40,221 nucleotides of DNA from an uncultured bacterium. Lineage in GTDB: Bacteria; Acidobacteriota; Thermoanaerobaculia; Multivoradales; JAHZIX01. Location: NCBI GenBank assembly GCA_965368975.1, contig CBDUPA010000033.1:1-40221 (forward strand), written 5' to 3'. Positions 3,001-17,914 of the stretch are shown piece after piece. The position numbers were made by a program, and so were the translations under genes. How positions within the stretch are numbered: position 1 is the first letter of the stretch; each line of letters begins with the position of its first letter. The notes beneath the pieces are model-generated. The model saw nothing but the letters and a program-made list of their open reading frames with translations, was not told where the DNA came from and made no database searches.

Positions 3001-4949
3001 TCAACGCCGGCTTCCGTAGCCGCCTGTTCGACACCACCACCATCGAGCGCTTGCTCGGTCACTGCGAGGTGCTGCTGGAGTCGATCGTCGAAGCGGAGGT
3101 CGCAGATCTGCCGCTGCGCCGCCTGCCACTCTTGAGCCGTGCCGAGCGACACCAGTTGTGCGTCGAGAGCAACGATACCCACCGCGCCTATCCCGACGAC
3201 GTCTCGCTCGCCACTCTGGTGCGCCGTACCGCCGAACGCTTCCCCGACGCCGTCGCGGTGCTCTATCCGGGCGGCACCGATCATCACCTCAGCTATCGCG
3301 AGCTGATCCGCCGCGCCGATCTACTGGCTACGGCCCTGCGCCAGAACGGCGTTGGCCCCGACGTCCTGGTGGCGCTCGACCTCGAGCGCTCGCCGGAACT
3401 GATTGTCGCCACCGTCGGCGTCATCCTTGCTGGTGGTGCCTACCTGCCGCTGAACCGCAACTACCCGCAGGAGCGCCTCGACTTCCAGCTGCGTGACGCG
3501 GGTGTCGAGGTGGTGGTGGGCGAGGGGGGGATCGCGATCCCAGCCACCTCCCCAGGGCATCCAAGTGGGGGTGCCCCGACTTCTCTCAACCTTGCCTACA
3601 CCCTCTACACCTCCGGCTCCACCGGTCGTCCCAAGGGCGTCGCCGTGACTCAACAGGGCGTCGCACGTCTGCTACTCGACAATCCCTACGCGGACTTCGG
3701 CCCCGGTCGCCGTTTCTGCCAGGTCGCCAACTTCGGCTTCGACGCCGCCACCTTCGAGGTCTGGGGCGCGTTGCTGCACGGGGGCTGCGTCGTCGGCGTG
3801 CCGCGAGACCTCAGCCTGGCCCCGGCGCGACTGGCTCGCTTCTTCGCCGAACACCGCGTCGACGCCGCTTGCTTCACTTCCGCCCTCTTCCACCAGACCG
3901 CGCGCTCGCATCCGGAGACTTTCGCTGGCCTGCGCGATCTGCTCGTGGGTGGTGAGGCCGTCGAGCCCGAAGCCTCGCACTTGTTGCTACGCTCTAGTTC
4001 CGGAGGTGGCTTCCGCGGCCGTCTCGCCAACGCCTATGGTCCGACCGAGTGCACCGTCATTGCCACCGTCGGTCCGGTGACGCTGCCGGACGTCGAAACC
4101 GCTGCCGATCAGCCCGCACGTGGCGCTCGCGCGCACGGACGCCTGTCGATCGGCCGTCCGATCGCCAACACAGAAGTCTTCCTGCTGGACCCGCACGGCG
4201 AGCTCGTCGTGCCCGGCGTGGCCGGTGAACTCTACCTGGGCGGCCCCGGCCTGGCGCGCGGCTACCTCGGTCGTCCGGCGCTCACGGCTGACGCTTTCGT
4301 CCCGCATCCCTTCACACGTGAGTCCGGCTCCCGTCTCTACAAGACCGGCGATCTCGTGCGCCGCCTGCCCGACGGCCGTCTCGACTTTCTCGGCCGTCGC
4401 GATCACCAGGTCAAGCTGCGCGGTTTCCGCATCGAGCTGGGCGAGATCGAGATGGTGTTGCGGGCGCAAGAAGGGGTGGAAGATGCCGTCGTGCTGGTGC
4501 GCGGCGAGGGGGACGGACGGTACTTGGTGGCTTATGTCGTCGGTCCTGTCGTCGGCCGAGACCTTCTGGCCGCCACCCTGCCCGACTACATGGTGCCGCG
4601 CTACCTCGTGCCACTCGACGCCTTCCCCCTCACCGCCAACGGCAAACTCGACCGCCGCGCCTTGCCCGACCCTGACACCACACCGCGCGACACTTACGTG
4701 GCGCCGAGGAGCGAACTGGAAGAGGACCTCGCCGAGTTGTGGGCCGAACTGCTCGCCGTCGAGCGCGTTGGCGTCGAAGATGATTTCTTCGAACTCGGCG
4801 GCCACTCCATGCTGGCGATGCAACTCATGTCGCACCTGGAGGCCAGCCTCGGCTTCCCGGTGCCGCTGGAGAAGCTGTTCTCTCAGCCCACGATCGCGGC
4901 CTTGGCGGTGGTGCTGGAAGACCTGGCCGAGGAGTTCGAAGACGACTGA
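3..4949 (+). CDS. Non-ribosomal peptide synthetase, 5'-truncated by the window edge; domains A(partial)-T-C-A-T, no terminal TE/R domain
   Basis: The frame is open upstream of the ORF-track start at 93 (YLLYTSGSTGRPKGV, A3 motif). A-domain motifs YGPTE, YRTGD/YKTGD and RGFR(V/I)ELGEIE occur twice; T motifs FFRLGGHSLL and FFELGGHSML; C domain SYAQQRLWFL and HHIASDGWS. Ends EEFEDD* at 4949. Confidence 0.97.
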   Translation, partial: CALPSAGTEPCPDSPAYLLYTSGSTGRPKGVLVTHRGVSRLLLGNPYMPFTSRLRIAQLNNTAFDASTIEIWGAWLHGGTLVGVPRQISQDAAAVPGYLHRWGVEMAMIPSALFAHLARTRPEVLDGIPYINIGGEAADREACRRFLARTEGRRPGRLLNGYGPTECTVYSQVEILYPTDAEPTDDEAPIVAIGRSVAATEAVLLPPGGPVCWHEPLPLGVAGELCLGGARLARGYHRRFGLTAERFVPHPFPSSSRGGDRLYRTGDLVRMLGDGRFDYLGRLDHQIQLRGFRVELGEIEAVLRGVEGVEEAVVLVHGEGEGRYLVAYVVAGAQASHAESGATPHVPEGDHMGSPLPRSDSEVLLPEVCLDVARAGLPDYMVPRHIVPLAALPLNAHGKTDRAALAAIELQDPRSSQHRAELDRTAPRDEVEALLVRVWAKLLDVGEVGVHADFFRLGGHSLLAASLLAEAESAFGVHVSLAMFFEQPTIASLARHVRTARERRVAVGDAYGKTLLRRPPLVSLDRREIETDAEGRPVLPQSYAQQRLWFLDRLEPGLPTYHIAVPLRFRGDLDVAGLHATLEGILARHEALRTTFAQHGAEAVQVIHPPPRPGHRQPLPLIDLGGLVSGADPGTEVSSEVSERVEVELERLAAAEARRPFDLTRDPMLRVVLVRLPRVPTEATAGDEGVEGMVSEHGVLATLHHIASDGWSVGVLVKDVAMLYQAWVGGEWRGQERRPLPPVQVQYADYAVWQRRWLETVAGEPADSEDAAEDAPPITVLDRQLDYWRTQLTGAPTLDLPLDRPRPPRFETSGSHALRILPARLARRLEAFALDSGNTLFVTLLTAFEVLLLRWTGQADISVGTPVAGRTRAEVEPLIGFFVNTLVLRGRLDADASFRDAQAQLRNVVLTGQDHGDVPFERVVEALQPPRDRSRTPLFQVLFTLQTTATGRLDLPGLDLRAVPLRSGVAKFDLEVQAQPYIDPEAPRNSDGEVEATLLLNAGFRSRLFDTTTIERLLGHCEVLLESIVEAEVADLPLRRLPLLSRAERHQLCVESNDTHRAYPDDVSLATLVRRTAERFPDAVAVLYPGGTDHHLSYRELIRRADLLATALRQNGVGPDVLVALDLERSPELIVATVGVILAGGAYLPLNRNYPQERLDFQLRDAGVEVVVGEGGIAIPATSPGHPSGGAPTSLNLAYTLYTSGSTGRPKGVAVTQQGVARLLLDNPYADFGPGRRFCQVANFGFDAATFEVWGALLHGGCVVGVPRDLSLAPARLARFFAEHRVDAACFTSALFHQTARSHPETFAGLRDLLVGGEAVEPEASHLLLRSSSGGGFRGRLANAYGPTECTVIATVGPVTLPDVETAADQPARGARAHGRLSIGRPIANTEVFLLDPHGELVVPGVAGELYLGGPGLARGYLGRPALTADAFVPHPFTRESGSRLYKTGDLVRRLPDGRLDFLGRRDHQVKLRGFRIELGEIEMVLRAQEGVEDAVVLVRGEGDGRYLVAYVVGPVVGRDLLAATLPDYMVPRYLVPLDAFPLTANGKLDRRALPDPDTTPRDTYVAPRSELEEDLAELWAELLAVERVGVEDDFFELGGHSMLAMQLMSHLEASLGFPVPLEKLFSQPTIAALAVVLEDLAEEFEDD
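1047..1071 (-). repeat. GTAG-family REP-like palindrome inside the NRPS coding sequence
   Basis: Minus strand reads GTAGG-GGCGACC-CCATGT-GGTCGCC: a GTAG tetranucleotide followed by a 7-bp GC-rich stem. It lies in an insertion present in the first A domain but absent from the second. Confidence 0.6.
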
Positions 4950-5809: not shown

Positions 5810-7792
5810 CTAGTGCGTCCGAAGCCGAAGAATCAGCGGCTCATGGTCGCTAGCCTGAAGATATGGCGGAAAATCTGCGTTGACATGCACGATCTCCAGC
5901 TGCGGCTGAGCCTTCTGTGCCAGCGTCGGACTGATCAGGACGTGGTCGAGCACTTGGGAGTTGCCCTGGTAGTTGTAGGTGTAGCGCTGGGCCAGGGGGA
6001 CCGTTTCCAGGAGGTTGACCAGGCCGACTTCGTCGACCAGGTGACGGATCGGGGCGCGGAACTCGTGCTCGTTCATGTCGCCGAGTACGACGACCCAGGC
6101 TTCGGGATCGACGTTCAGCAGCTCGGTGACGAAGGCGCCGATGACCTGCGCTTGTTCCAGGCGACGCTTTTCGCTGTGACGCACCGGTGGTTGACGGCTG
6201 CCGAAGTCGCGGTCGTCGCCGCGCTTGGAGGTGAGGTGGTTGTTGATCAGGAAGAGGCGGCGGGCGGTGGTGCCGTGACCGATGCGGAACTCGGCGGCCA
6301 GACTCTTGCGGCTGCCGCCCTCATCGCTGTCCGGGTCGGGGCCGAAGGCGGCATGCTCGGGCTCGATGCGGCCGGGGCTGAGCGTGAGGGACAATTCGCC
6401 GCCGCCGGTGCCGGGGTCGATCTCGACGGCGTCGGTGGGGCCGGCTTCACCACGGTCGAGGAAGGCGACGCGTTCGGGGTTGAACAGGTAGACAACGCGG
6501 ATGTTGCCGTCCGGCTGGCCGCCGTCGGCGTTGGGCAGCGGGTCGATCTGACGGTATTCGTAGCGCGGCCCCCCGGCACTGCGGATGGCGAAGATCAGCT
6601 TCTTGAGCGTCTGGTTGGGCGAGGTCCAGGGGCCCGGCTCGGCGCCGTTGTCGTCTTGGACTTCCTGCAGCGCCAGGATGTCCGGGCTGGCCATCGGGCC
6701 GGCGATCTGCGCGGCCAGGCGGCGGAACTGCGTGTCGGGATCCTTGGCGTCGAGGTTGAGCACGTTGTACGTCGCGATCGTGATGTGCTCGTCGTCGCCG
6801 CGCAGGATCGAATGGGCCTCTGGCGCTGGGGTATCCGCGACGGGTTCTGAGCTGCCAGGAGCCTTCATACCATAGGGGATGAGCAGCGGCAGCGGCTCGG
6901 TGGGCAGCAGCCGATAGGTGCCGTAGTCGTAGCTCAGCACGCCGACGATCGCGCCGTCGAAGCGGTCGCCGACGCTAGCCTGCGGCACTTGGTAGTCACG
7001 CGGCAGCAGCGCGTCGACGTTGATGATCAAGCGCTCGGGGTTCAGGTCGTTGTTGGTCAAGACGACTCCGCCGCGGGCGCTGCGATTGTCGATGCCGGCA
7101 CCGCCGCTGGGCAGCACGACGATCTCGCCGTATTTGCTGGTCGGTCCAACCACCACCGGGTCCGGCACGCGCACGCGCATGCCCTCGAGGCTCTCGTAGA
7201 AGTCTAGCGCGTCGGTGGTCGGTTCGAAGGCGCCGAGGCCGTCGTCGTCGATCACGGGGCTGGGGGGCCTACGCCGGGCCACGGCGGTACTGTCCGCTGG
7301 CAGGCTGCCAGGTCCCAACTCGACGACCGCCGGCAACGCGACCTCGCCGCTGTCGTCGACGCTCTCCACCGCCGTCGCGGCGATCTGCGTCACCGGCAGC
7401 TGGCCGTCTCGCTCCGGTTCGCGCACCTCGCCGGTCACCCGCACCGGCAACCCGACGCTCACCGCACACGCCACCTCGCACGTCACGTACACGCCCTCGG
7501 ACGTCGCCGGGTTGCCGTCGTCCTGGGCGCTCTGCAGCCAGAAGCCGCGCGGCGTGGGTTCTTCGCCGCCCTGAGTGTCGTCACGAAGGGGCAGCGTCGC
7601 GGTGACGATGCCGTCGACGGTGACCGTTTGCCCGACCCTGGGGGAGCGGTGCGCCTCGCCTTGGATCTCCGGGATGGTCACCACGTCGGTGACCTGTGCA
7701 TTGACCTCCTCGGGTGCCTGTGGCGACGCCGCGATGGGGAGGCAGAGCAGGGCCAAGGCCGAGAAGAGCAGGGGACGCAGCTGGGTGTTCAT
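5810..7792 (-). CDS. Secreted endonuclease/exonuclease/phosphatase-family nuclease with N-terminal OB-fold (ExeM/NucH/YhcR-like)
   Basis: Signal peptide; TIPEIQG..HRSP, DGNPATSEG, ESLEGMRV, ATYNVLNL, LQEVQD, NHLTSK, GDMN, LDHVL, SDHEP. Confidence 0.9.
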   Translation of the reverse strand: MNTQLRPLLFSALALLCLPIAASPQAPEEVNAQVTDVVTIPEIQGEAHRSPRVGQTVTVDGIVTATLPLRDDTQGGEEPTPRGFWLQSAQDDGNPATSEGVYVTCEVACAVSVGLPVRVTGEVREPERDGQLPVTQIAATAVESVDDSGEVALPAVVELGPGSLPADSTAVARRRPPSPVIDDDGLGAFEPTTDALDFYESLEGMRVRVPDPVVVGPTSKYGEIVVLPSGGAGIDNRSARGGVVLTNNDLNPERLIINVDALLPRDYQVPQASVGDRFDGAIVGVLSYDYGTYRLLPTEPLPLLIPYGMKAPGSSEPVADTPAPEAHSILRGDDEHITIATYNVLNLDAKDPDTQFRRLAAQIAGPMASPDILALQEVQDDNGAEPGPWTSPNQTLKKLIFAIRSAGGPRYEYRQIDPLPNADGGQPDGNIRVVYLFNPERVAFLDRGEAGPTDAVEIDPGTGGGELSLTLSPGRIEPEHAAFGPDPDSDEGGSRKSLAAEFRIGHGTTARRLFLINNHLTSKRGDDRDFGSRQPPVRHSEKRRLEQAQVIGAFVTELLNVDPEAWVVVLGDMNEHEFRAPIRHLVDEVGLVNLLETVPLAQRYTYNYQGNSQVLDHVLISPTLAQKAQPQLEIVHVNADFPPYLQASDHEPLILRLRTH

Positions 7793-8512: not shown

Positions 8513-9289
8513 TCAGGTCGGCAATGCAGCCTGCCCCGCGGCGATCCGCAGAGCTTCGACCGCGGCCACGCGTAGAGGATCGACCAATTCGACCGTCGAC
8601 GCCTCGAGCGTCAGCGGGTGCAAAGCCAGCGGAATCTCGGTGCAGCCGAGCACGACCGCGACGGCCCCGGCGTCGCGCAACTGCTCGGCGGCGTCGAGCA
8701 GGACTGGCCGGTGGAGCCGTGGGTCGTCGCCCGCCTTGAGGCCGAAGATCGCCGCCATGACGGCCGCCTGTCGCGCTGCACCCTCCGCGAGGTCGCGCGG
8801 GTTGCACCAGCTCAAATTGCGTCCGCCAGCAGCTTCCATGCGCCGGGCCGCCTGGGGATAGAGTTCGGCCTCGAGGGTGCCGGACGTCGCCAGCATGCCG
8901 ATACGGGCCGTGGCGCCGAAGCGCTGCGCCAAGGTGCGGACAGTGAGGCAGACCATGTCGAGAATCGGGATCTCGACGCGGGGCCGGACCGCGTCCAGAA
9001 AGGCGTATGCCGTGTTGCACGCGAGCAGCGCGAAGTCGGCGCGTCCCTGCAAGCGGTGCAGGCTGGAGACCAGCGCGTCGACCGGCGAGGCACCACCGTC
9101 GAGCAGGCAAGCCGTGCGATCCGGCGTCGCGGGCAGCGAGGAGAGCAGCCAGGGCGGGTAGTCTTGCTCACACTCGATCGCGTGGCCCAGGACTTCCGGC
9201 GCCGCGTCGAGCAGGTGTTGCTCGAGTCCCAGGTGCGCGCGCGGTCCGAGACCGCCGACGATGCCGAGCAGGCGGGGCCAGAGGGTCAT
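8513..9289 (-). CDS. Aspartate/glutamate racemase family protein with both catalytic Cys
   Basis: LGIVGGLGP, PDRT, ACNTAY, LATSGT, LGCTEIPL. Start placed at ATG 9289 rather than 9376. Confidence 0.9.
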   Translation of the reverse strand: MTLWPRLLGIVGGLGPRAHLGLEQHLLDAAPEVLGHAIECEQDYPPWLLSSLPATPDRTACLLDGGASPVDALVSSLHRLQGRADFALLACNTAYAFLDAVRPRVEIPILDMVCLTVRTLAQRFGATARIGMLATSGTLEAELYPQAARRMEAAGGRNLSWCNPRDLAEGAARQAAVMAAIFGLKAGDDPRLHRPVLLDAAEQLRDAGAVAVVLGCTEIPLALHPLTLEASTVELVDPLRVAAVEALRIAAGQAALPT

Positions 9290-9539
9290 GGGGGAAGTAT
9301 CGCATGGTGGGGGGGGCAAGCGGGTCCTGGCAAGATGATGCATTGAGTTGGCTTGCTGGCCTGATGTGGAGCCCAAGTCCAGTTCAGGAGGCGTTCTGGT
9401 TCCCCTGCTTGCCAGCCAAGCCTGGAATGTTCTCTTCTCCGAGAGCGAGAGGCTCTACGACGCGGTGCGGTGTCTTCCATCTATTCTCATTGGTTCAGTT
9501 TGTCCTTCAGGCTCGCGTCCGTGAATGCAGACAGATGAG

Positions 9540-9628
9540 TGGACACTTTGTCCAGCCTGTGCTACCTTTATCCATACTATGGATAGATCTTCACAGAACC
9601 TCTGTGGTTATGCTGTATCGATTTCGAT
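9540..9628. promoter_or_regulatory. AT-rich cluster of perfect palindromes (candidate operators) upstream of the island operon
   Basis: TGGACA-ctt-TGTCCA (9540-9554), TATCCATA-c-TATGGATA (9569-9585), CACAGA-acc-TCTGTG (9592-9606), ATCGA-tt-TCGAT (9617-9628). Confidence 0.45.
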
Positions 9629-9730
9629 TTATAGGATATCTAAATTGATATTGCCTGTTTGTGCCTGATGGAGGTTGATCGTGTTGATCGAGAGTGTTGT
9701 AGATCTGGCCAACTCGAAAGGGGGATGACG

Positions 9731-10006
9731 ATGCAAGCTTTGGTGATGGAAGTCGGGTTTAAGGTCGTCGTGACCGTGAGTGGACCTCGGAAGCGCAGTA
9801 CTGAGCCTCCAGTTCCTTCGCACGAAGACACGGAGTGGCCAAGCTCTAAGGAAGCGAAGGCCCAGAAGTGCGTAGGGCAGGTCGCTGGACCATCCAACAG
9901 AACAGAAAGCCGCCTGGGCCAGGTTCAGTATCTTTGTGAGAAGATCTTGCCGATCTTGGCAGCCAGTTCGACGACCCTGGGTTTCTTGATGTCTCTCTTG
10001 GGTTAG
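9731..10006 (+). CDS. Possible small hypothetical protein (91 aa) with hydrophobic C-terminus
   Basis: Purine-rich AAAGGGGG about 6 nt before ATG 9731; same strand as the operon and 93 bp upstream of it; no recognisable motif. Confidence 0.3.
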   Translation: MQALVMEVGFKVVVTVSGPRKRSTEPPVPSHEDTEWPSSKEAKAQKCVGQVAGPSNRTESRLGQVQYLCEKILPILAASSTTLGFLMSLLG

Positions 10007-10099
10007 TGGTGAGTTTGGTGCCTCAGCGGCAAGGAAGACAGCCGCAGAATGCAGTTAGAACTATCCATGCAAAGTAAGAATGATACTTGGAGATAAGCA

Positions 10100-11410
10100 A
10101 TGAGTTCTATGTCCTTGGGGCAGGAGCAATGTGAGTGGCTTGAGAGCTTACGAGAGGACTTCAAAATCTCGCAGCATGAGATCGCTAAAAGTGGTGGCAT
10201 CCCACAGGCAAGCGTCTCAAATTGCCTGAGGGGGCAGGCTCTCAATAGTGATTCGCTGAATAGATTCTTTACTGGATTATGTGAGTGCGTGCACGTGAGT
10301 TCTGGGCTGAAGTCAGATGGGACAGCCGAAGTAATGGCTGAACTCGATGCTATGCGAAAGAGCTTGGGCCTTGCTGGCGAGGACTGTGTGAGTATTCCGC
10401 GTCCTGGGGCTGTCTCCGAAAGCAATCGAGTAGTCCGAGTAGACGTTGAGAAGGTCCTGTCTCGCGCGTTGAGTGAAGCACCCTTTACTGCTGCAGTTGT
10501 CGGCTCGCCAGAATCCGGGAAGACTACATTGTTGCAGGTCTTGACGTCTAAAGCCCGGCGGATTGGTTTCAAGGTCGTAGAGTTCGATGTTCGTTTGTTA
10601 GAGCCGCCTGAGTTCCGAGAGAAAGATGAAGGCTCAGAAGAGAGCCTTGCTTGCTTCTTCTGTGAGCTGGCAATGGAGGTAGGTACTACGCTCGAGGCAA
10701 GTCTAGAGAAGGCCAAGGCAGTAGACGGACGCCTAGCGTTCTCGAGATACTTGCGCCAGCTTCGCGCTAAGGTCTCCGAGCCCCCGTTACTCATCGTATG
10801 TGATCACGCTTCAGTATCGCGAGGCGTACTGGAGGAGCTTGCCCAGACATGTCGTTCATTAGACGCCTACAAAGGCAGGACTCAGGTTTCCTGGGCCTTG
10901 GATGTTTCCGGCAATCCAGGCAGTCATCGTGTCGGTGCAGTATCCAAGTTGGCGCCTTCACCAATGATCGAGTTGGGTTGGTTTTCTGGGCGACAGGTTG
11001 AAGATCTGGCTGATCTTTACGAACTGCGGGAAAAGGAAGCTCGCGCGGAACTCTGGAGGTGGTTCAAGGGGCACCCCTTCCTTACGCATAGCGCGCTGCA
11101 TCGCTATCGCGATTTCTGTGAGAACACGCTCATTGAGGACAGCTGGGCAGCCGTTGGTGCCGAGATCACAGCTTCGCCTCCGGGTGGGCCGTTCAAGCAA
11201 CACCTCAGTCGGCTGAAAGGACGTGTTGGAGAGGAATTGAAAGCCGCGAAGCCTCTAGCAGAGCTTCAGGCTCTTGGTGAGCAAGCTGCCGGTGAGCAGC
11301 GAGATTTATTGCCGCTCTGTGTACGCCAGTATCTCCTGCCGCATCTCGATTCTGGTCTCGCGGGATTGCCCGAGTTCTATATTCATCAGGAGGGTTTCTT
11401 ACGCTCATGA
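10100..11410 (+). CDS. XRE-type HTH fused to AAA_35-like (STAND-related) P-loop NTPase with degenerate Walker B
   Basis: N-terminal ISQHEIAKSGGIPQASVSNCLRG (HTH); Walker A GSPESGKT; Walker B LLIVCDH; later WFKGHPFLT and PFKQHLSRL resemble the GGHPYL and HL.RL segments of AAA_35 proteins; GGAG RBS. Confidence 0.75.
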   Translation: MSSMSLGQEQCEWLESLREDFKISQHEIAKSGGIPQASVSNCLRGQALNSDSLNRFFTGLCECVHVSSGLKSDGTAEVMAELDAMRKSLGLAGEDCVSIPRPGAVSESNRVVRVDVEKVLSRALSEAPFTAAVVGSPESGKTTLLQVLTSKARRIGFKVVEFDVRLLEPPEFREKDEGSEESLACFFCELAMEVGTTLEASLEKAKAVDGRLAFSRYLRQLRAKVSEPPLLIVCDHASVSRGVLEELAQTCRSLDAYKGRTQVSWALDVSGNPGSHRVGAVSKLAPSPMIELGWFSGRQVEDLADLYELREKEARAELWRWFKGHPFLTHSALHRYRDFCENTLIEDSWAAVGAEITASPPGGPFKQHLSRLKGRVGEELKAAKPLAELQALGEQAAGEQRDLLPLCVRQYLLPHLDSGLAGLPEFYIHQEGFLRS

Positions 11411-13710
11411 GTCTCATGAAATTCGCGCGAGGGCAGACTGTCGAGTCTGGGCATATTTATGTGCTGCGGGATATTGATCGGCGTTTCCGAAAACTGGCTC
11501 TGGCAGGTGGTTGGTTTGGCATTCAAGGCTGCCGAACGATGGGAAAGAGCAGTTTGGCGGTGCGTTCCTTCCAAGAGTTGGCAGCGCAAGGTTGCCGATC
11601 GGTTTTCTTGGACCTGGGAGCTTGGAACCAAAAGAAAATTGAAGCTTGGCTCGAGGATTTTGCGAGCGAGCTACTGACGGAGCTTGGCGATACCTTGCCC
11701 AACCCTCCGGTACCCGAAGACATTCTCGGAGATATGTCTGGTTTCCTCCAGCGTTGTTCCGAAGGTGCTGAGCGTACTTTGATTGTGCTCGACGAGGTGG
11801 ATTGGTTGCAGGAGTTGAAGTACCGGCGCGAGATCTTCGCGCGTTTGCGCGCTGCACAGAGCAAGCTGGCTCTGCGCGGTGAAGCAAGCCGGCTGGGTTT
11901 CTGCTTCATTAGCTTGAAGCCGTTGACCCGAGAAGGTGCAGCCAGGTACGGACCCATAATTCAAACCCTTCAAGTACCGGATTTTCCCACCGAGAGTGCT
12001 GCCGGAGAGCGGGTCGTCACGGCTCTCAAGCAGGGATTCAACCCAGACGTCCGCCGCCGAGCTGCGATCGCGCGTACGGTGTTGCGACAAGCGGGGGGGC
12101 AGCCCTATCAGACGATGATCCTGGCCAGTGAAGTGGCAGATAAGCAGGCGAGATCGGCCAAGCAAGCGCTTGAGGTTATCCAGGCTTATGTCGACGCGCA
12201 GCGCGATCACCCGAAAGAACTCTTTTCGCAGATTCAGGAAATGTTCCTCGAGGAGCCGATTCGGGCCCATGAAGCGCTGAATGAGTACGAGAGTCTTCTG
12301 CGCGGCCAGTTCTCTGCGCTGGGAACCGTAGGGGCCGATGTCTTGCTGCGCTCGGGGCTAGGCTGTGAGCGGAACGGCGCCTTGGCCATAAAGGGTCCAG
12401 TTTTCGAGCGCTTCTTCGATCAACGGTGGGTAAGCCGGATGCGGGATCAGCTGTTGATAGCGCAGCGACAACAGCGCCCTCGCTGGCGAGCAGCGGGTAC
12501 GATGAAGCCGCGAATCTGCATCCTAAACACCGGCGGTACTGTCGGCATGGTGCGACGCGAGAGCAAAGTTGTAGCACCAAGAGATGAAAAGGAATTTCTG
12601 GAGAACTATTCTTCTCTTCAACAAATTGCAGATATCGACTTCGAGCAACCTTTCGTGCGCGACAGCATTAATGTCTATCCGCAGCAGTGGAAGCAAATAG
12701 CTGAGACTATTTACCGCAAGAGGGACGAAGGATATGCGGGTTTTGTCGTGGCTCATGGCACAGACACCATGGCTTTTACAGCTTCCGCGGTAGCTTTTGC
12801 TCTGGGGCCCAATCTATCGGTTCCTGTCGTCTTCACAGGGTCACAGACCACGCCGGAAGTTCTGCATGGAGATTCGCAGGCGAACCTGATTCGTTCCTGC
12901 ATGGTGGCGGCTCGGGGTACAGAATTACCGGAGGTGGTGATCTGCTTCGGAACGAAAATCTTTCGTGCGGTACGGGCGCAGAAGCGAGATGAGCGTCGGT
13001 TCGAGGGGTTCGACTCACCGACGTTTCCGCCGCTTGGGGAGATCACGGAAGATATCTTGCTAGATCGAGAGCGGATCCGCGAAGGGCCCAGTCTAAGAGT
13101 CGACCTGATCCGCCAGCGACCGGTCGAAGGGACCGATATCCAACTGCAGCCCGATTTTTCACCAGGGGTCTTGATGGTTCAGTTGACACCGGGTCTGGAA
13201 CCAAACTTCTATTTAGACATTATCGAGAGAAGTGAGTATCACTCTTGCGAAGGGGTCATTCTGCAGACCCTGGGGGCGGGCAATGTCGCGATGCTGGAAC
13301 CGTATGGCTTCACGCGCTTTCTGGTTCGCGCCCGGCACCAGGGGATACCCGTCTTGATCACTTCGCCCTATCCCTGGAGTCTGAGCTTGTCGGAAGAGTA
13401 CGCTCCTGCGGCCGAGCCGGCAAAGTTAGGCGCGCTTATCGGTGGCGAGATGACGGCTGCCGCAGCCGTGACCAAGTTCCGCTGGGCTCTCGCGGCAGTA
13501 GCCGCGGAGGTGGAGAGTGGGCAGTTGAAGCCTTCAGGGCGCATCGAGCGGGTTCGCGAGATCATGCAAACCAACTTTCTGGGAGAGAAGGACGGGCCGA
13601 TGTGGCAGGACAATCAGCGAAAGCCTGGAACTCCGACAAGGAACTCCGTCGACTTGAAGAGTCGGAATCAATCGAAGACCGGCGATACTAACAAGGAGAA
13701 CGCAGCATGA
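11407..13710 (+). CDS. AAA_35-like P-loop NTPase fused to a type I L-asparaginase domain
   Basis: YVLRDID, Walker A GCRTMGKSS, Walker B LIVLDEVD, GGQPYQT, FDQRWV. From 12502: NTGGTVGM, DSINV, HGTDTMAFTAS, PVVFTGSQ, RAQK..FEGFDSP, LGAGNV. ATGA overlap with the previous gene. Confidence 0.88.
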   Translation: MSLMKFARGQTVESGHIYVLRDIDRRFRKLALAGGWFGIQGCRTMGKSSLAVRSFQELAAQGCRSVFLDLGAWNQKKIEAWLEDFASELLTELGDTLPNPPVPEDILGDMSGFLQRCSEGAERTLIVLDEVDWLQELKYRREIFARLRAAQSKLALRGEASRLGFCFISLKPLTREGAARYGPIIQTLQVPDFPTESAAGERVVTALKQGFNPDVRRRAAIARTVLRQAGGQPYQTMILASEVADKQARSAKQALEVIQAYVDAQRDHPKELFSQIQEMFLEEPIRAHEALNEYESLLRGQFSALGTVGADVLLRSGLGCERNGALAIKGPVFERFFDQRWVSRMRDQLLIAQRQQRPRWRAAGTMKPRICILNTGGTVGMVRRESKVVAPRDEKEFLENYSSLQQIADIDFEQPFVRDSINVYPQQWKQIAETIYRKRDEGYAGFVVAHGTDTMAFTASAVAFALGPNLSVPVVFTGSQTTPEVLHGDSQANLIRSCMVAARGTELPEVVICFGTKIFRAVRAQKRDERRFEGFDSPTFPPLGEITEDILLDRERIREGPSLRVDLIRQRPVEGTDIQLQPDFSPGVLMVQLTPGLEPNFYLDIIERSEYHSCEGVILQTLGAGNVAMLEPYGFTRFLVRARHQGIPVLITSPYPWSLSLSEEYAPAAEPAKLGALIGGEMTAAAAVTKFRWALAAVAAEVESGQLKPSGRIERVREIMQTNFLGEKDGPMWQDNQRKPGTPTRNSVDLKSRNQSKTGDTNKENAA

Positions 13711-15227
13711 AGGCAACAGCTGACCTTGGAAGAGTTCTAGTGCTCTATACCGGAGGCACTATCGGTTCCCGGCCCCGCGATTTGGAGGATCCGGACAGTC
13801 CCCAGTATGTGGTGCCCTGGAAGGATCTGGAGCGCGGTACTCCCGAACTGGCCGCGCTGCAGGCGAAGCGCGGTTTTCAGGTCGATGCCGTCTCGAGTGA
13901 TCCGCCGCTGGATTCGTGCAACATCGGCCCCAAGGAATGGATCCAGTTCGCCAAGATCATCGCCGAGAAGTATGAGGAATATGAAGGTTTTGTGATCTTA
14001 CATGGTACGGATACCATGGTGTATACAGCATCAGCGCTTTCCTTCATGATCCGCGGCCTGCGCAAGCCCGTGATTCTGACCGGTGCACAGCGTTCGGCGC
14101 TGGTTGACGTGCGCAACGATGCCTCTCAGAACTTCATCACGGCCTTGTTGCTGGCTAACCCGAAGTTTTCCAGTATCCCAACCGTGCCGGAGGTGACGAT
14201 CTTCTTCGGCGGTAAGCTGCTACGGGGAAATCGAACGATCAAGCAAGATACAACTGGATACGATGCCTATACCAGTCCGAATGTGCCAGCCCTGGGGAAA
14301 GTGGGCGACAAGGTTGTTATCCACAAGAACCGTCTGAGTGAGCCACGGGAGCAGGAACACTTCCGAGCGCAGCTACGGCTCGAGGATCGAATCCTGCCCT
14401 TGTTCATCTACCCAGGCATCACGCCGCAGGTCGTCGAGGCGCAAATCGAAGCGACGAAGCCGAAGGCGGTGATCGTGCAAGCGTTCGGCTCTGGCAACAT
14501 TCCCAATCTCGATCCAGAACTGGTCGAGGTATTCCGCCGAGCGCGGCAAGAGAAGATGATCCTGATTGCCGTAGTTTCCCAGTGCACCCAGGGGCCAGTA
14601 GAACTCGGAATCTATGAGACGAGCGCTGAGCTCTTGGATGCCGGCTTTATCTGCGCCAACGACATCACTTTGGAAGCAGCACAGTGCAAGTTGATGGCCT
14701 TGCTCGGTGATCCGGACATCAGTCTGGAGGAAGCCGAGCAGGAGTTTCAGCGTGCGATGGCAGGGGAACAGAGCCTCTCGGCTTACGTAACAGATTTCTC
14801 AGACGAACCGGGAAAGCTACCGGCGGAGGGCGATGCGCCCACGCGCGTTCGTTTCAAGGCACGCCCTCTGGCGGGAGTGTGGGAGGCCTCCAATCTTTCT
14901 CAGGCGCTGTTACGTTTCCGCAAAGGCTTCGTGACGGTGGACAAGGGGAAGGGCAAGGCTTCCCGGGACTATACCGAGTATCAGATCTACCTCAACGCTG
15001 CGCCGGACGAAGAAGTGAGTCCAGACAATCCTGGTTACGCTGGCACCTTCAAGCAGTACTCGATGACCGAGGGGCAAGCGAGCTTGGTACTGTTCGACAT
15101 CACCGAGGCCTTGCGTCCGCTGGCAGCGTCGGGAGAGCGGATCTCGTTCACGATCGTTGGTGAGGACGAGCGCGCTACGTTCACTTGGGAGCAAGTGGAA
15201 CTAGCGCTCTTCGTGCGCGAGGCCTGA
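13707..15227 (+). CDS. ansA: Type I (AnsA-like) L-asparaginase with ~150-aa C-terminal extra domain
   Basis: YTGGTIGS, LDSCNI, HGTDTMVYTASALSF, KPVILTGAQ, RGNRTIK..GYDAYTSPN, FGSGN, SQC; AAGGAG RBS; ATGA overlap. Confidence 0.93.
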   Translation: MKATADLGRVLVLYTGGTIGSRPRDLEDPDSPQYVVPWKDLERGTPELAALQAKRGFQVDAVSSDPPLDSCNIGPKEWIQFAKIIAEKYEEYEGFVILHGTDTMVYTASALSFMIRGLRKPVILTGAQRSALVDVRNDASQNFITALLLANPKFSSIPTVPEVTIFFGGKLLRGNRTIKQDTTGYDAYTSPNVPALGKVGDKVVIHKNRLSEPREQEHFRAQLRLEDRILPLFIYPGITPQVVEAQIEATKPKAVIVQAFGSGNIPNLDPELVEVFRRARQEKMILIAVVSQCTQGPVELGIYETSAELLDAGFICANDITLEAAQCKLMALLGDPDISLEEAEQEFQRAMAGEQSLSAYVTDFSDEPGKLPAEGDAPTRVRFKARPLAGVWEASNLSQALLRFRKGFVTVDKGKGKASRDYTEYQIYLNAAPDEEVSPDNPGYAGTFKQYSMTEGQASLVLFDITEALRPLAASGERISFTIVGEDERATFTWEQVELALFVREA

Positions 15228-15271
15228 GGGATGTCGACCGCATCTTGCTCTGACTCAAACTGCGAAGGGCC

Positions 15272-16663
15272 ATGAGTCCAGCTGACGTCGCGAGCGAAGC
15301 CTGGGCGGGCTTGTTGCGAGGAGTCGAGGACCGTGTGCCGCCGCCGGTGCTGCACACGGCCGCCTTTCTCGCTGCGCACGGTGTGTGGTGCCGTTTGAGC
15401 CGCAATCACGAGGCGTTCAGCTGCCGGGATGCAGCCCGCAAACGTTGGCGTCTCGGGCACGAAGGGATCGAACTCTGGAACGAGCTGAAGTCTTACTTCG
15501 GGCGTTTCCGCAATGCTTCCGGCCACGAGCAATTTGTGCTGGCGCACTGCCGGGGAGATCGAGTGGTCAATCTCGAACAATTAGCCCGGGCGTTGCACGC
15601 CCAAAGAGAAGTCGAGCGCTTGGATGAAGCGGAGGTCAAGCGCTTCGGGGTTCAATATGGGTTGGTGAACCCGTTCGAGACGTGGAAGGTTTCTGAGTAT
15701 GAGATGGACGGACCTGCCTTGACGACACCGGTGCTACAAGTCTTCGATCGAGAACTGGCGACGCCGCTCGGAGTTCCCGGTACGGTCATGACCAATGCGG
15801 GAGATCTGACCTGGGCAGTGGAGTTCGATGTTGTGGCCTTGATGGATGCTCTGGACAATGCCTTCGTCGAAGACATTGCCGATCCGGATCCCGAGAACGA
15901 CGCGATGCTCTGGGGAGCCCGAGAGCCGAAGAGTATCGGGATCTTGACCGGTAATGCTCCGGAATCGGGGATCCACCTCTGGAATGATGTCAACCGTTAC
16001 GTGCGCGAGCTACTCGGGTCTCTTAGTTGTGGTGACGTATCGATGCCGCCGGTGAATGTCTATAGCCTGCCCGCGATGGGATTGACTATGGAGCTGGCGG
16101 AGCGAGAGCAGGCCATCTGGCCACACGTAAGAAAGGCAGTGAAGAACGCTTGCGTCGACGGTGCGCAGCTGTTAGCCATTGCGTGCAACACAACGCATTA
16201 CTTTACACCTCGCATTCGAGAGATCTGCTCTGAGTACGGTACTGAGTTCGTTGCGATGCCGGAGATTCTAGCTGATTGGTTGCGCCACCAGAGGATCACT
16301 GATCTGGCGTTTGTCGGAATCCGGTATGTTTCGGAGTTGGGGAAATGGAGTGGATACCGCGAAGCTTTGGACGAGTTCAAGGTCGAGCAGCTGAGTGAAC
16401 GTGCCAAGGAGCTGCTCGACGAGTTGGCATATCAGGTGAAATCCGAGGGACCTACGGAAAAAGGTCTAAACCGCCTGCGAGATATCCTGCGCCAAGAGGT
16501 CGATAGCGAAACGGTCGTTCTTGCCCTCACCGAGCTTTCCATCTTGCTTTCTATCCAACGTAAGAAGAGCAGAAGTGGACGCCTGATTATCGACCCTCTG
16601 GCACTCTACGCGGAGGCTCTGGCTCGCAAGTATCTGGGGCTACCCTTCCCGGCGGAGGATTGA
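15272..16663 (+). CDS. YbaK/ProX-like (INS superfamily) aminoacyl-tRNA editing domain fused to an Asp/Glu racemase-like domain
   Basis: N-half: SCRDAA, ELKS (conserved Lys), VLAHCRGDRVVNLEQL, GLVNPF (GxxxP), VFDREL, NAGDLTWAVEF. C-half from ~15929: IGILTGNAPES, IACNTTHYF, VVLALTELS. Confidence 0.78.
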   Translation: MSPADVASEAWAGLLRGVEDRVPPPVLHTAAFLAAHGVWCRLSRNHEAFSCRDAARKRWRLGHEGIELWNELKSYFGRFRNASGHEQFVLAHCRGDRVVNLEQLARALHAQREVERLDEAEVKRFGVQYGLVNPFETWKVSEYEMDGPALTTPVLQVFDRELATPLGVPGTVMTNAGDLTWAVEFDVVALMDALDNAFVEDIADPDPENDAMLWGAREPKSIGILTGNAPESGIHLWNDVNRYVRELLGSLSCGDVSMPPVNVYSLPAMGLTMELAEREQAIWPHVRKAVKNACVDGAQLLAIACNTTHYFTPRIREICSEYGTEFVAMPEILADWLRHQRITDLAFVGIRYVSELGKWSGYREALDEFKVEQLSERAKELLDELAYQVKSEGPTEKGLNRLRDILRQEVDSETVVLALTELSILLSIQRKKSRSGRLIIDPLALYAEALARKYLGLPFPAED

Positions 16664-17327
16664 TCTCCCCCATCAACCCCTCCACCTGCCGCAGCTGCCG
16701 TCCGACCCACAGCCGATACCCGATCAAGAACAGCAGCATGCCGCCGACCAGGCCGCCCATCATCCACCAGTACCTGGGACTTCCGGTGAGGCGGATGGGG
16801 TCTTCGGCCAGGGTCCAGTAGAACCAGGGCACCAGCAGTACCACCTCGACGAGCAGCAGGTAGAGGGCGAAACGCGCGCCGAGCAGGCGGCGGCGGCAGC
16901 GTAGGTGGGTGAGGGCGAGGTAGTCCGCGGCGGTTTCGCCGTGGCTTTGCCAGATGCTGCGGCGGTTCCAGAAGGAGAAGGTGGTGGCGGCGAGGACGAG
17001 GACCCAGATGAAGAGGGCCAGGACGAGATCGGGGGTGGTGGAGTTGTGGGCGAGGTGCCAGGCGCCAAAGAGTGTGAGGCCGAGAGCGGTCAGGATGTCG
17101 CCGAGGGCCCACAGGCGGAAGGTCCAGTCCTGGCGCTTGGCGCGGCGCCGGATCTGTTCGAAGCTGGGCCTCTCGTAGCTGGGCTGTTCGTGGCTGGGAT
17201 GGTCGTGGCTGGGCTGTGACGGGCCGCCTGCTGGCTGAGCGGCGTCCTCCTGCTGCCACAGGTCGCGCCACTCTTCGGGCGCCGGATCGCCCTGCACGGG
17301 CTTGTTCGGGGGATAGGTCTGACTCAT
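16587..17327 (-). CDS. Multi-pass membrane protein, probable anti-sigma factor for the upstream ECF
   Basis: W..LWQQ N-terminal motif and about four hydrophobic segments; ATGA-coupled to the ECF gene; 3' end overlaps the island's last gene by 77 bp. Confidence 0.7.
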   Translation of the reverse strand: MSQTYPPNKPVQGDPAPEEWRDLWQQEDAAQPAGGPSQPSHDHPSHEQPSYERPSFEQIRRRAKRQDWTFRLWALGDILTALGLTLFGAWHLAHNSTTPDLVLALFIWVLVLAATTFSFWNRRSIWQSHGETAADYLALTHLRCRRRLLGARFALYLLLVEVVLLVPWFYWTLAEDPIRLTGSPRYWWMMGGLVGGMLLFLIGYRLWVGRQLRQVEGLMGEINPPPGRVAPDTCEPEPPRRVPEGR

Positions 17328-17914
17328 GGCGTGGTTCCCGCGGCTTTCGGGGAGTTAGTCGTGGAGGAGGTCGCCTCGAGCAGGCGCCGCAGGTCGCCCC
17401 GGGCGCGGTTCAGGCGGACGGCGACGTTGTTGGCGCTCAGGCCGAGGATGTCGCCGATCTCTTTGTGGCTCAAGCCTTCGAGGCTGAGGGTGAGAACTTG
17501 ACGCCGCCCGAGGGGCAGTTGCCGGATGGCGGCTTGCAGGTGCCGGCGCCGCTGGGCGCGCTCGGCGGCGGCTTCGGGGTTGGCGGTGGCGGCGAACAGG
17601 TGGTGGCGCACGGAGTCCAGGGGCGACCACGGACGTTTGCGGGCGCGGTGTGACAGGCCGCGGTTGTGCGCGATGCGGAAGGCGAAGGTACGCTCGCTGC
17701 AGTCGCCGCGGAAGCGCGGAAGCGCCTGCCAGATGGCGAGGCAGATGTCTTGAAACAGGTCTTCCTGACGCCCTGCGTCCGCCTCGTAGGCGCACGCCGC
17801 GCGGCGCAGGGCGGGGCCGTGCTCGGCGAGGATGCGCTGGAAGCGGTCGTCGTGTCCACCACGCGCGGGTGCTGCGGTGGACGGCGACGGGGCGTCAGGA
17901 GGACCGTCGGGCAT
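17324..17914 (-). CDS. ECF sigma-70 factor
   Basis: Region 2 EDLFQDICLAIWQALPRFRG..RIAHN; region 4 LEGLSHKEIGDILGLSANNVAVRLNRAR. Confidence 0.95.
   Translation of the reverse strand: MPDGPPDAPSPSTAAPARGGHDDRFQRILAEHGPALRRAACAYEADAGRQEDLFQDICLAIWQALPRFRGDCSERTFAFRIAHNRGLSHRARKRPWSPLDSVRHHLFAATANPEAAAERAQRRRHLQAAIRQLPLGRRQVLTLSLEGLSHKEIGDILGLSANNVAVRLNRARGDLRRLLEATSSTTNSPKAAGTTP

Follow-up and report, generated by a model that had tools for sequence, protein, structure and literature searches.

What is the function of a protein that joins a YbaK/ProX-like domain to an Asp/Glu-racemase-like domain whose second catalytic cysteine has been replaced? The question is raised by an open reading frame (ORF) at positions 15272-16663 (+ strand) of contig CBDUPA010000033.1, a stretch of 40,221 nucleotides (nt) from an uncultured Acidobacteriota bacterium, called the window here. 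Trans-editing domains of the YbaK type safeguard the accuracy of translation, and racemases for Asp and Glu are two-thiol enzymes. A preliminary description, made from the window sequence, had read the ORF as a fusion of both, in which the racemase fold is either an Asp/D-Asp sensor or a one-way enzyme and the partner a deacylase acting as toxin or in immunity. We found that the encoded protein, for which we use the family name YR, belongs to a real, conserved and apparently undescribed family, encoded together with asparaginases in an equally undescribed candidate conflict cassette. In our preferred reading, to which we give a probability of roughly 40%, the cassette is a conflict system that discharges aminoacyl-tRNA and destroys asparagine. 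The coordinates of all features are collected in Table 1.

Domains and catalytic residues of YR

The ORF is open and intact, and Pfam recognizes both halves of its product by a narrow margin. The tRNA_edit family (PF04073) passes marginally, with 27.1 bits against a cut-off of 25.5 and over residues 84-137 only, and Asp_Glu_race (PF01177) is barely over threshold (35.9 bits against 31; residues 230-449). YR misses the NCBIfam cut-offs for racemases (asp_race, 30.6 against 93.1; CuyB, 56.5 against 190). With a profile of 107 homologues, drawn from the matches nearest to the YR query, residues 211-446 align with the aspartate racemase of P. horikoshii (1jfl; E 3.9e-14), pairing ‘laltELS’ with ‘GCTEVS’ and ‘acnttqyF’ with ‘PCNTAHAF’. 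The AlphaFold2 model built on the same 107-homologue alignment has a predicted local distance difference test (pLDDT) score of 93.4 and a predicted template modeling (pTM) score of 0.91, the latter suggesting that the two domains are packed in a defined arrangement. Foldseek matched the C-terminal half to the Asp racemases 5ell (top match), 3ojc and 1jfl (E ~1e-10; target template modeling score, TM, 0.77-0.83) and the N-terminal half to YbaK (1dbu/1dbx), ProX (2dxa), 1wdv and 2z0k (E 1e-6 to 1e-5; target TM 0.76-0.83; probability 1.00). A language-model look-up of residues 14-215 returned tRNA_edit clusters (score 0.88), which we treat as a lead only. The proposed domain fusion is thus borne out by Pfam, AlphaFold2 and Foldseek (TM ~0.8 for each half), and structure prediction gives the N-terminal half the YbaK fold.

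A conserved active-site lysine and a GxxxP loop are the defining residues of the YbaK/ProX/INS editing superfamily. YR has both in addition to the fold, as had been noted from the sequence: in the profile alignment with PDB entries, K73 (nt 15488-15490) stands opposite the lysine of YbaK ‘FKTL’, and ‘YGLVNPF’, with the loop G130-P134 (nt 15659-15673), stands opposite ‘GGISPL’. With the pyridoxal-phosphate-independent two-thiol Asp/Glu racemases (PF01177; TIGR00035) YR shares the fold and the first cysteine (CNT) but not the second cysteine. ACNTTH (residues 304-309, nt 16181-16198), within the longer IACNTTH, contains the first-site Cys305 (nt 16184-16186). LALTEL (residues 417-422, nt 16520-16537) places Leu419 (nt 16526-16528) at the site of the second catalytic cysteine. 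Both motifs lie exactly where the preliminary description had put them.

YR is not an isolated protein. A word-indexed search returned 267 proteins, the best 120 of which share 44-74% identity over at least 85% of the query, and an exhaustive search of 50%-identity representatives gave 471 clusters at E ≤ 1e-3 and 179 at E ≤ 1e-30. Nearly all homologues are full-length two-domain proteins. Judged by these sequences, the YbaK-racemase fusion is ancient and widespread. Twenty matches are shorter, mostly fragments on short contigs from which the frequency of split forms is not derivable, and a search dedicated to fusions longer than 812 amino acids (aa) returned none, which is weak evidence. One scan of a species-representative genome collection yielded 26 YR loci. 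For residue counts we used 23 full-length copies, from the window and 22 of these loci; L002, L013 and L025 were left out, and L026 contributes an N-terminal half only.

The second cysteine is missing throughout. Site 419 is occupied in the 107 homologues by Leu (91), Ser (5), Met (5) or Thr (2) and in the 23 genome copies by Leu (13), Met (9) or Gln (1), with cysteine in neither set. The surrounding A-L-T-E-L-S motif is 85-100% conserved. A private decay, in which the change from Cys to Leu would be a recent inactivating mutation in a dying gene, has the single substitution itself in its favor and can be ruled out: the ORF is intact, the flanking motif is conserved and cysteine at this site is found in 0/107 and 0/23 sequences. 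The loss noticed in the window is hence a family trait, and the homologues do not keep GCTE. The first site is more variable, with Cys305 present in 96 of the 107 homologues and absent from 11, and with Cys in 13, Ala in eight and Asp in two of the genome copies. Since site 305 is not Cys in 10 of the 23 copies and site 419 never is, a whole subclade carries neither thiol. That the racemase half keeps ACNTTH, as first described, is therefore true of the YR protein in the window but not of the family.

Conservation is strongest in the other half. None of the 107 homologues deviates at C51 (nt 15422-15424), E71, P134 or N175. Conservation is 94% or higher at N45, R58, R60, H92, R94 and T174; residue 73 is Lys in 97 and Arg in 10, and G130 is kept in 103. 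In the 24 genome copies, 15 positions of the N-terminal half are constant except for K73R (twice), C93S (once) and H92N/C93V in L026. The C-terminal half has a conserved polar set of its own (N228, D255, E274, R278, S360, T420, E421, S423, and D441). The roughly 15 near-invariant polar residues of the N-terminal half argue for a catalytic center in the YbaK-like domain, where it probably lies, and for a racemase fold that is a non-racemizing pocket, probably retained to bind a ligand or to catalyze some non-racemase step. The proposal of an Asp/D-Asp sensor agrees with this pattern in so far as the second cysteine is never there and the first is often gone, as expected of a binding or sensing module that does not use two bases.

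The protein of L026 is YbaK-like and lacks the racemase half. It is encoded after two TIR proteins and directly before an asparaginase gene, keeps most family-specific residues but has N92 and V93, and is a genuine stand-alone form. A dependence of H92 and C93 on the presence of the C-terminal half, considered because of these two residues, was not borne out by other short forms.

Compared with characterized enzymes, the N-terminal half shares with YbaK, ProXp and the INS domain of ProRS the fold (TM 0.76-0.83), the lysine, the GxxxP loop and the marginal tRNA_edit match. YbaK and ProXp stand alone or the domain sits in ProRS, whereas in YR it is fused to a racemase-fold domain and encoded in an asparaginase cassette instead of beside translation genes. 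YR also has an invariant polar set of its own (N45, C51, R58, R60, E71, H92, R94, T174, and N175); in the alignment, which runs from about residue 65 on, YbaK has V, L and A opposite H92, C93 and R94, and S opposite N175. With the two-cysteine Asp racemases 1jfl and 2dx7 the C-terminal half shares its entire fold, the CNT motif and the T-E-x-S of GCTE, but the second Cys is replaced by Leu, the first is dispensable in a YR subclade, GGMGP has become TGNxPESG, and the ‘PDRT’ stretch has become ‘GLxME’.

Two further enzymes show what the racemase scaffold can do with an altered pair of residues. According to the article PMC12661438, both catalytic cysteines are conserved across the racemase superfamily, and the L-Asp/Glu-specific racemase EcL-DER of E. 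coli (YgeA; 5ell) combines an ‘unbalanced’ catalytic pair, Thr83/Cys197, with near one-way catalysis. This enzyme is the nearest precedent for the one-way option of the preliminary description. In EcL-DER, however, the first-site Cys is replaced by Thr, at which proton exchange is possible, and the second Cys is kept, whereas YR keeps or loses the first and has Leu or Met at the second. This difference weakens the one-way option, since neither Leu nor Met can pass on a proton as the Thr of EcL-DER does. Arylmalonate decarboxylase (2vlb, 3eis, 3ixl, 3ixm) is a one-cysteine enzyme that performs non-racemase chemistry on the same fold (Foldseek E ~1e-5, with a target TM of only ~0.55). By the titles of the PDB entries, the wild type has Gly74 at the first site and Cys188 at the second, which is the opposite of YR.

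The asparaginase cassette in the window and in other genomes

The decisive context of YR, which the preliminary description had missed, is an association with asparaginases in every related locus. In the window YR is the last of four co-oriented genes, and an island of low GC content has the extent of these four genes. The first three overlap by 4 nt of start and stop codon at both junctions, which suggests translational coupling. They encode a helix-turn-helix NTPase (HTH-NTPase), an NTPase-asparaginase fusion and a second, type-I-like asparaginase with a C-terminal tail. The TGGT, HGTDT and R..K motifs are kept across both asparaginase families, and Walker A and B across the NTPase family. 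We compared the NTPases with STAND/Avs-type sensors, in which a P-loop NTPase has an N-terminal effector and a C-terminal repeat or sensor region. They match AAA_35, AAA_16 and AAA_22 of Pfam only weakly; in the fusion the NTPase precedes the asparaginase, and no repeats were detected. The asparaginase tail is modeled as a confident beta-sandwich (pLDDT 92.4). Its best PDB match is the C-terminal shielding domain of latent polyphenol oxidase (4z12; E 2.8e-6, query TM 0.54), and it also resembles TGF-beta/BMP prodomains, so that all matched modules are latency-keeping ones. The likeness is moderate and may reflect the sandwich fold alone.

By its base composition the cassette appears to be horizontally acquired. 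We found no convincing direct or inverted repeats at the ends of the island and no tRNA genes in the window, and promoter and terminator scans of the window stayed at chance level.

The 26 loci are spread over Acidobacteriota, Actinomycetota, Bacteroidota, Planctomycetota, Cloacimonadota, Saccharibacteria, Pseudomonadota and a deltaproteobacterial metagenome-assembled genome, and include the cultured strain Rhodospira trueperi ATCC 700224 (L022). An asparaginase adjoins YR in all 26, found by tblastn in 25 and by Pfam in L021. When the ORFs of the loci were clustered, only the four cassette families recurred, while the flanks were unrelated. The NTPase-asparaginase fusion occurs in 19 loci, the asparaginase with a tail in 20 and the HTH-NTPase in 11. 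In three loci (L003, L013, L019) YR lies between both asparaginase genes. In five others (L006, L007, L016, L024, L026) the cassette is of a short form, in which the asparagine hydrolase is a plain one of 313-392 aa and the NTPase is missing; such loci are accompanied by enzymes dependent on pyridoxal phosphate (PLP) that resemble diaminopimelate (DAP) decarboxylase, by amidases and by a cyclase/FGE protein.

Several variants add domains that are familiar from conflict systems. Seven TIR-domain proteins are found in four loci (L015, L016, L017, L026). L015 combines a TIR-asparaginase fusion, a SIR2-STALD protein and an X-TIR protein, and X-TIR proteins recur in the other three; these consist of an N-terminal domain of about 250 aa with an invariant DTFFSD motif and a C-terminal TIR domain. 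PP2C is fused to the C-terminus of YR in at least six proteins, namely that of L014 (9929-12337) and at least five database proteins. The fused YR proteins listed are P0055, P0064, P0071, P0095, P0124, P0130 and P0149, of which P0130 carries a C-terminal PLP enzyme resembling hydroxyaspartate dehydratase and P0149 (828 aa) unites YbaK, racemase and asparaginase domains. The flanks of the loci hold RES toxins, a type ISP restriction enzyme, integrases and conjugation genes. To judge from these gene neighborhoods, the pattern of TIR, PP2C, NTPase and mobile genes around YR is typical of conflict systems. The toxin or immunity flavor of the preliminary description fits a horizontally acquired cassette and the TIR domains of other loci. 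A tblastn search of phage genomes gave no match to YR, and a Foldseek comparison with viral structures gave nothing meaningful (best match, a giant-virus TrpRS; E 5.5e-4, query TM 0.27).

The same accessory genes bear on the main rival of a depletion system. Here, asparaginases, YR and accessory enzymes would synthesize or process a small molecule derived from an amino acid, for instance an ester resembling an aminoacyl-nucleoside, that activates effectors such as TIR proteins; YR would form, read or clear this signal and would not be a tRNA deacylase. Li, Burroughs and Aravind describe in a preprint (10.64898/2026.10.19.760177) asparaginase-based conflict systems with V4R-effector proteins, in which the ligand-binding V4R domain is fused to a TIR, HEPN, 2TM or ParA effector, and propose that the asparaginases in them generate a diffusible signal; the main text of that preprint contains neither the word YbaK nor the word racemase. 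Like the YR cassette, those systems are predicted by comparative genomics alone and combine an asparaginase gene with immune-type domains (TIR, NTPase). The X-TIR proteins, whose TIR is of the CAP12/Pycsar-effector type and which adjoin YR in four loci, the DAP-decarboxylase-like enzymes, amidases and cyclase/FGE protein of the short-form loci, and the binding of an aminoacyl-adenosine end by the YbaK fold, which makes a nucleoside ester a plausible ligand, all speak for such a messenger. We nevertheless consider it an unlikely explanation. The cassette of the window and most other loci have no separate effector to activate, and it is the asparaginase that is fused to NTPase or TIR, where the effector usually sits. 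This fusion and the duplication of the asparaginase set the YR cassette apart from the systems of the preprint. Pfam found no V4R domain in the proteins of the window or in the scanned ORFs of the loci, although a divergent V4R could escape Pfam.

Racemase relatives, flanking genes and other genes of the window

A tblastn search of plasmids gave a single match, a relative of the racemase half on the Ensifer adhaerens plasmid NZ_CP118612.1 (L027). This stand-alone racemase of 253 aa keeps both cysteines (ACNT, ACTE) and shares 26-36% identity with all 24 YR C-terminal halves (E down to 3e-37), whereas the two-cysteine racemase encoded in the window barely matches YR (E 4e-4). In contrast to YR it lacks a YbaK-like domain and an NTPase, and its neighbors are metabolic. 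Its gene, too, shows translational coupling with a gene for an asparaginase, and the latter overlaps a gene for aspartate ammonia-lyase. Further neighbors of this operon are a RelE/ParE-CopG pair and amino-acid ABC transporter genes. Because the racemase gene overlaps the asparaginase gene, the pairing of both appears older than the fusion and looks metabolic in Ensifer. The Ensifer module looks like the metabolic sister of the racemase-asparaginase pair, and, as the comparison of sequences indicates, the YR lineage lost its thiols after this pairing, which preceded the fusion.

The Ensifer operon, with its transporters and aspartate ammonia-lyase, also lends weight to a metabolic role, in which the cassette would serve the regulated use of asparagine, of D-Asn/D-Asp or of a related amide, with the NTPases as regulators and YR as an altered member of the racemase family that carries an additional part for binding the substrate. 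Some flanks of the 26 loci contain two-cysteine racemases, D-amino-acid transaminase, DAO-type oxidase or glutamine synthetase, in line with this role. We regard it as improbable all the same, since fusions of asparaginase to NTPase or TIR, PP2C fusions and a GC island are unlike a housekeeping pathway, the spread is patchy, over seven or more phyla and amid unrelated flanking genes, and the very chemistry on which a pathway of this kind would depend, that of the racemase, has been lost.

Translation genes are frequent next to the cassette. Seven of 116 scanned flank ORFs encode an aminoacyl-tRNA synthetase (aaRS) or a tRNA-related protein; by our own rough estimate such genes make up less than 1% of a genome, which would put them several-fold above chance. 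In four loci an aaRS gene lies beside a gene for an enzyme consuming the same amino acid, directly upstream of the cassette (Table 1). The GC content of the pair in L001 (0.68, against 0.62-0.65 in the cassette) suggests a host-like origin, and those of L011 and L018 are uninformative. The GC profiles thus do not assign these pairs to the cassette. Two further proteins are encoded just downstream of the cassette, one with a B3_4 domain, known from the PheRS beta subunit, and one with the C-terminal domain of lysyl-phosphatidylglycerol synthase, which is part of an aminoacyl-tRNA-dependent transferase.

YR might be a trans-editing factor of translation quality control that clears mischarged or D-aminoacyl-tRNA, such as D-Asp-tRNA or Asp-tRNA(Asn), with the racemase fold recognizing the amino acid. 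The YbaK fold, the lysine and the GxxxP loop are those of an editor, an aaRS or AlaX gene stands beside the cassette in five loci and the B3_4 protein in another, and canonical two-cysteine racemase genes, a possible source of D-Asp, are found next to the cassette in 4 of 27 loci (related genes in L012, L013, and L018). One would, however, not expect a housekeeping editor to lie on a GC island or to have NTPase-asparaginase and TIR proteins as partners, and the neighboring synthetases serve Lys, Pro, Tyr and Ser instead of Asp or Asn. This explanation is the most improbable of the functional ones considered here; it and the metabolic role are both less likely than the messenger.

The other genes of the window complete Table 1. 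The neighboring racemase that the preliminary description had cited for its LGCTE is indeed a canonical member with both motifs (LACNTAY, LGCTEI). The gene for part of a nonribosomal peptide synthetase (NRPS) has host-like GC content and is not conserved near YR in other loci. Downstream, a membrane-protein gene lies on the opposite strand, and its 3′ end shares 77 nt with the end of YR; this gene contains three 15-nt tandem repeats (17154-17213) encoding a P-S-x-E-Q-type repeat.

Table 1. Coordinates of the features in the window and in related loci
Feature	Coordinates	Strand	Remarks
NRPS, 3′ part	3-4949	+	PP-binding, condensation, AMP-binding, PP-binding; runs off the window start
ExeM/NucH-family extracellular endonuclease-like protein	5810-7792	-	659 aa; NCBIfam 150.5, below cut-off 300
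Two-Cys Asp/Glu-racemase-family gene	8513-9376	-	canonical; host-like GC; outside the island
Low-GC island	~9500-16700		GC 0.48-0.64; background 0.67-0.72
HTH-NTPase	10100-11410	+	436 aa; first cassette gene; weak N-terminal helix-turn-helix, P-loop NTPase, AAA_35-like region
NTPase-asparaginase fusion	11407-13710	+	767 aa; Walker A GxxxxGKS, Walker B DExD, asparaginase domain
Type-I-like asparaginase	13707-15227	+	506 aa; YTGGTIGS, LHGTDTM and RGNRxxK motifs intact
C-terminal beta-sandwich tail of the 506-aa asparaginase	14760-15224	+	150 aa
YR	15272-16663	+	463 aa; ATG start; YbaK/ProX-fold and Asp/Glu-racemase-fold domains
YbaK/ProX-like domain of YR	15329-15886	+	residues ~20-205; Pfam, AlphaFold2, Foldseek, alignments
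Asp/Glu-racemase-fold domain of YR	15923-16636	+	residues ~218-455; Pfam, profile alignment, Foldseek
Membrane protein	16587-17327	-	after the ECF sigma gene
ECF-type (extracytoplasmic function) sigma-70 factor	17324-17914	-	
X-TIR family	L015:11343-12554; L016:8212-9354; L017:3465-4721; L026:8814-9827		adjoins YR
Stand-alone YbaK-like protein	L026:9992-10564		191 aa; no racemase half; 1.77-Mb contig
Ensifer operon	L027:7968-11091		two-Cys racemase, asparaginase-domain protein, aspartate ammonia-lyase; overlapping
LysRS and Lys/Orn-decarboxylase-like	L001:1304-4343		
ProRS and Pro-3-hydroxylase-like	L002:604-3127		
TyrRS and Tyr-decarboxylase-like	L011:773-4064		
SerRS and serine dehydratase	L018:1065-3895		
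AlaX-like editing protein and D-amino-acid transaminase	L023:1030-2686		
B3_4 domain protein	L008:12539-13345		just downstream of the cassette
Lysyl-phosphatidylglycerol synthase C-terminal-domain protein	L020:13783-14763		just downstream of the cassette

Candidate role of the YR cassette

We prefer to see the cassette as a putative anti-phage system of the abortive-infection type. Asparaginase active sites form at subunit interfaces, and for this reason assembly by the NTPases could act as a switch: upon a trigger, the NTPases would bring asparaginase domains together. Asparagine would then be destroyed while YR discharges the pool of charged tRNA, and translation would stall. The YbaK-like half would be the catalytic one, binding and cleaving, or possibly transferring, an aminoacyl ester, most likely that at the 3′ end of a charged tRNA, for example Asn- or Asp-tRNA. 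The dead racemase half would offer a pocket for the amino-acid moiety, as a sensor or hand-off point, and would not racemize it. In favor of this view we count the fold and motif matches, the concentration of selection on the YbaK-like half, the constant asparaginase partner, the conserved asparaginase and Walker motifs, the mobile and conflict-type surroundings, the aaRS and tRNA-related flank genes together with the PLP-enzyme fusion P0130, and the fact that Li, Burroughs and Aravind independently propose conflict systems based on asparaginases.

Several observations weigh against this proposal. The cassette of the window itself contains no TIR domain or other recognized effector, and PADLOC (PADLOC-DB 2.0.0, E ≤ 0.01) matched none of its families (0) to 10 proteins of the window; the immune role, which we infer from the gene neighborhoods, would thus be a candidate role that matches no known defense model. 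The sequence match of the N-terminal half to YbaK is weak (profile E 0.12-0.87 against PDB; Pfam 27.1 against 25.5), so that the inference on the active site of YR rests on the fold. Cys305 is retained in 96/107 homologues, and many members may therefore perform some residual chemistry instead of pure binding. The closest relative of the C-terminal half sits in the apparently plain metabolic operon of the Ensifer plasmid, and YR may therefore stem from metabolism or even still serve it. The accessory decarboxylases and amidases, and TIR proteins with unassigned sensor domains, fit the production of a messenger equally well.

In our literature search we found no description of a YbaK-racemase fusion or of the YR cassette, and we know of no characterized defense system that acts by destroying asparagine or by discharging aminoacyl-tRNA. 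YR is built from known folds, and the way in which it acts is plausibly new. Two folds with altered catalytic inventories are joined in a widespread fusion, and the duplicated asparaginase and the TIR, PP2C and NTPase variants suggest a conflict system that works via amino acids or aminoacyl-tRNA. Its C-terminal half is a clear natural pseudoenzyme of the racemase fold, with a descent that can be traced from a two-cysteine, asparaginase-linked ancestor. The cassette hypothesis is directly testable, since the cultured strain R. trueperi has the cassette.

It is a tentative possibility that the cassette represents a novel kind of bacterial immune system acting on the amino-acid supply of the ribosome, in which asparaginases assembled by NTPases would work together with a YbaK-derived enzyme that is steered by a racemase pocket and strips charged tRNA. 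If so, infected cells would lose asparagine and Asn-tRNA together, a fold for tRNA proofreading would have been recruited as an effector that strips correctly charged tRNA of its amino acid, and a racemase would have become a pseudoenzyme sensor.

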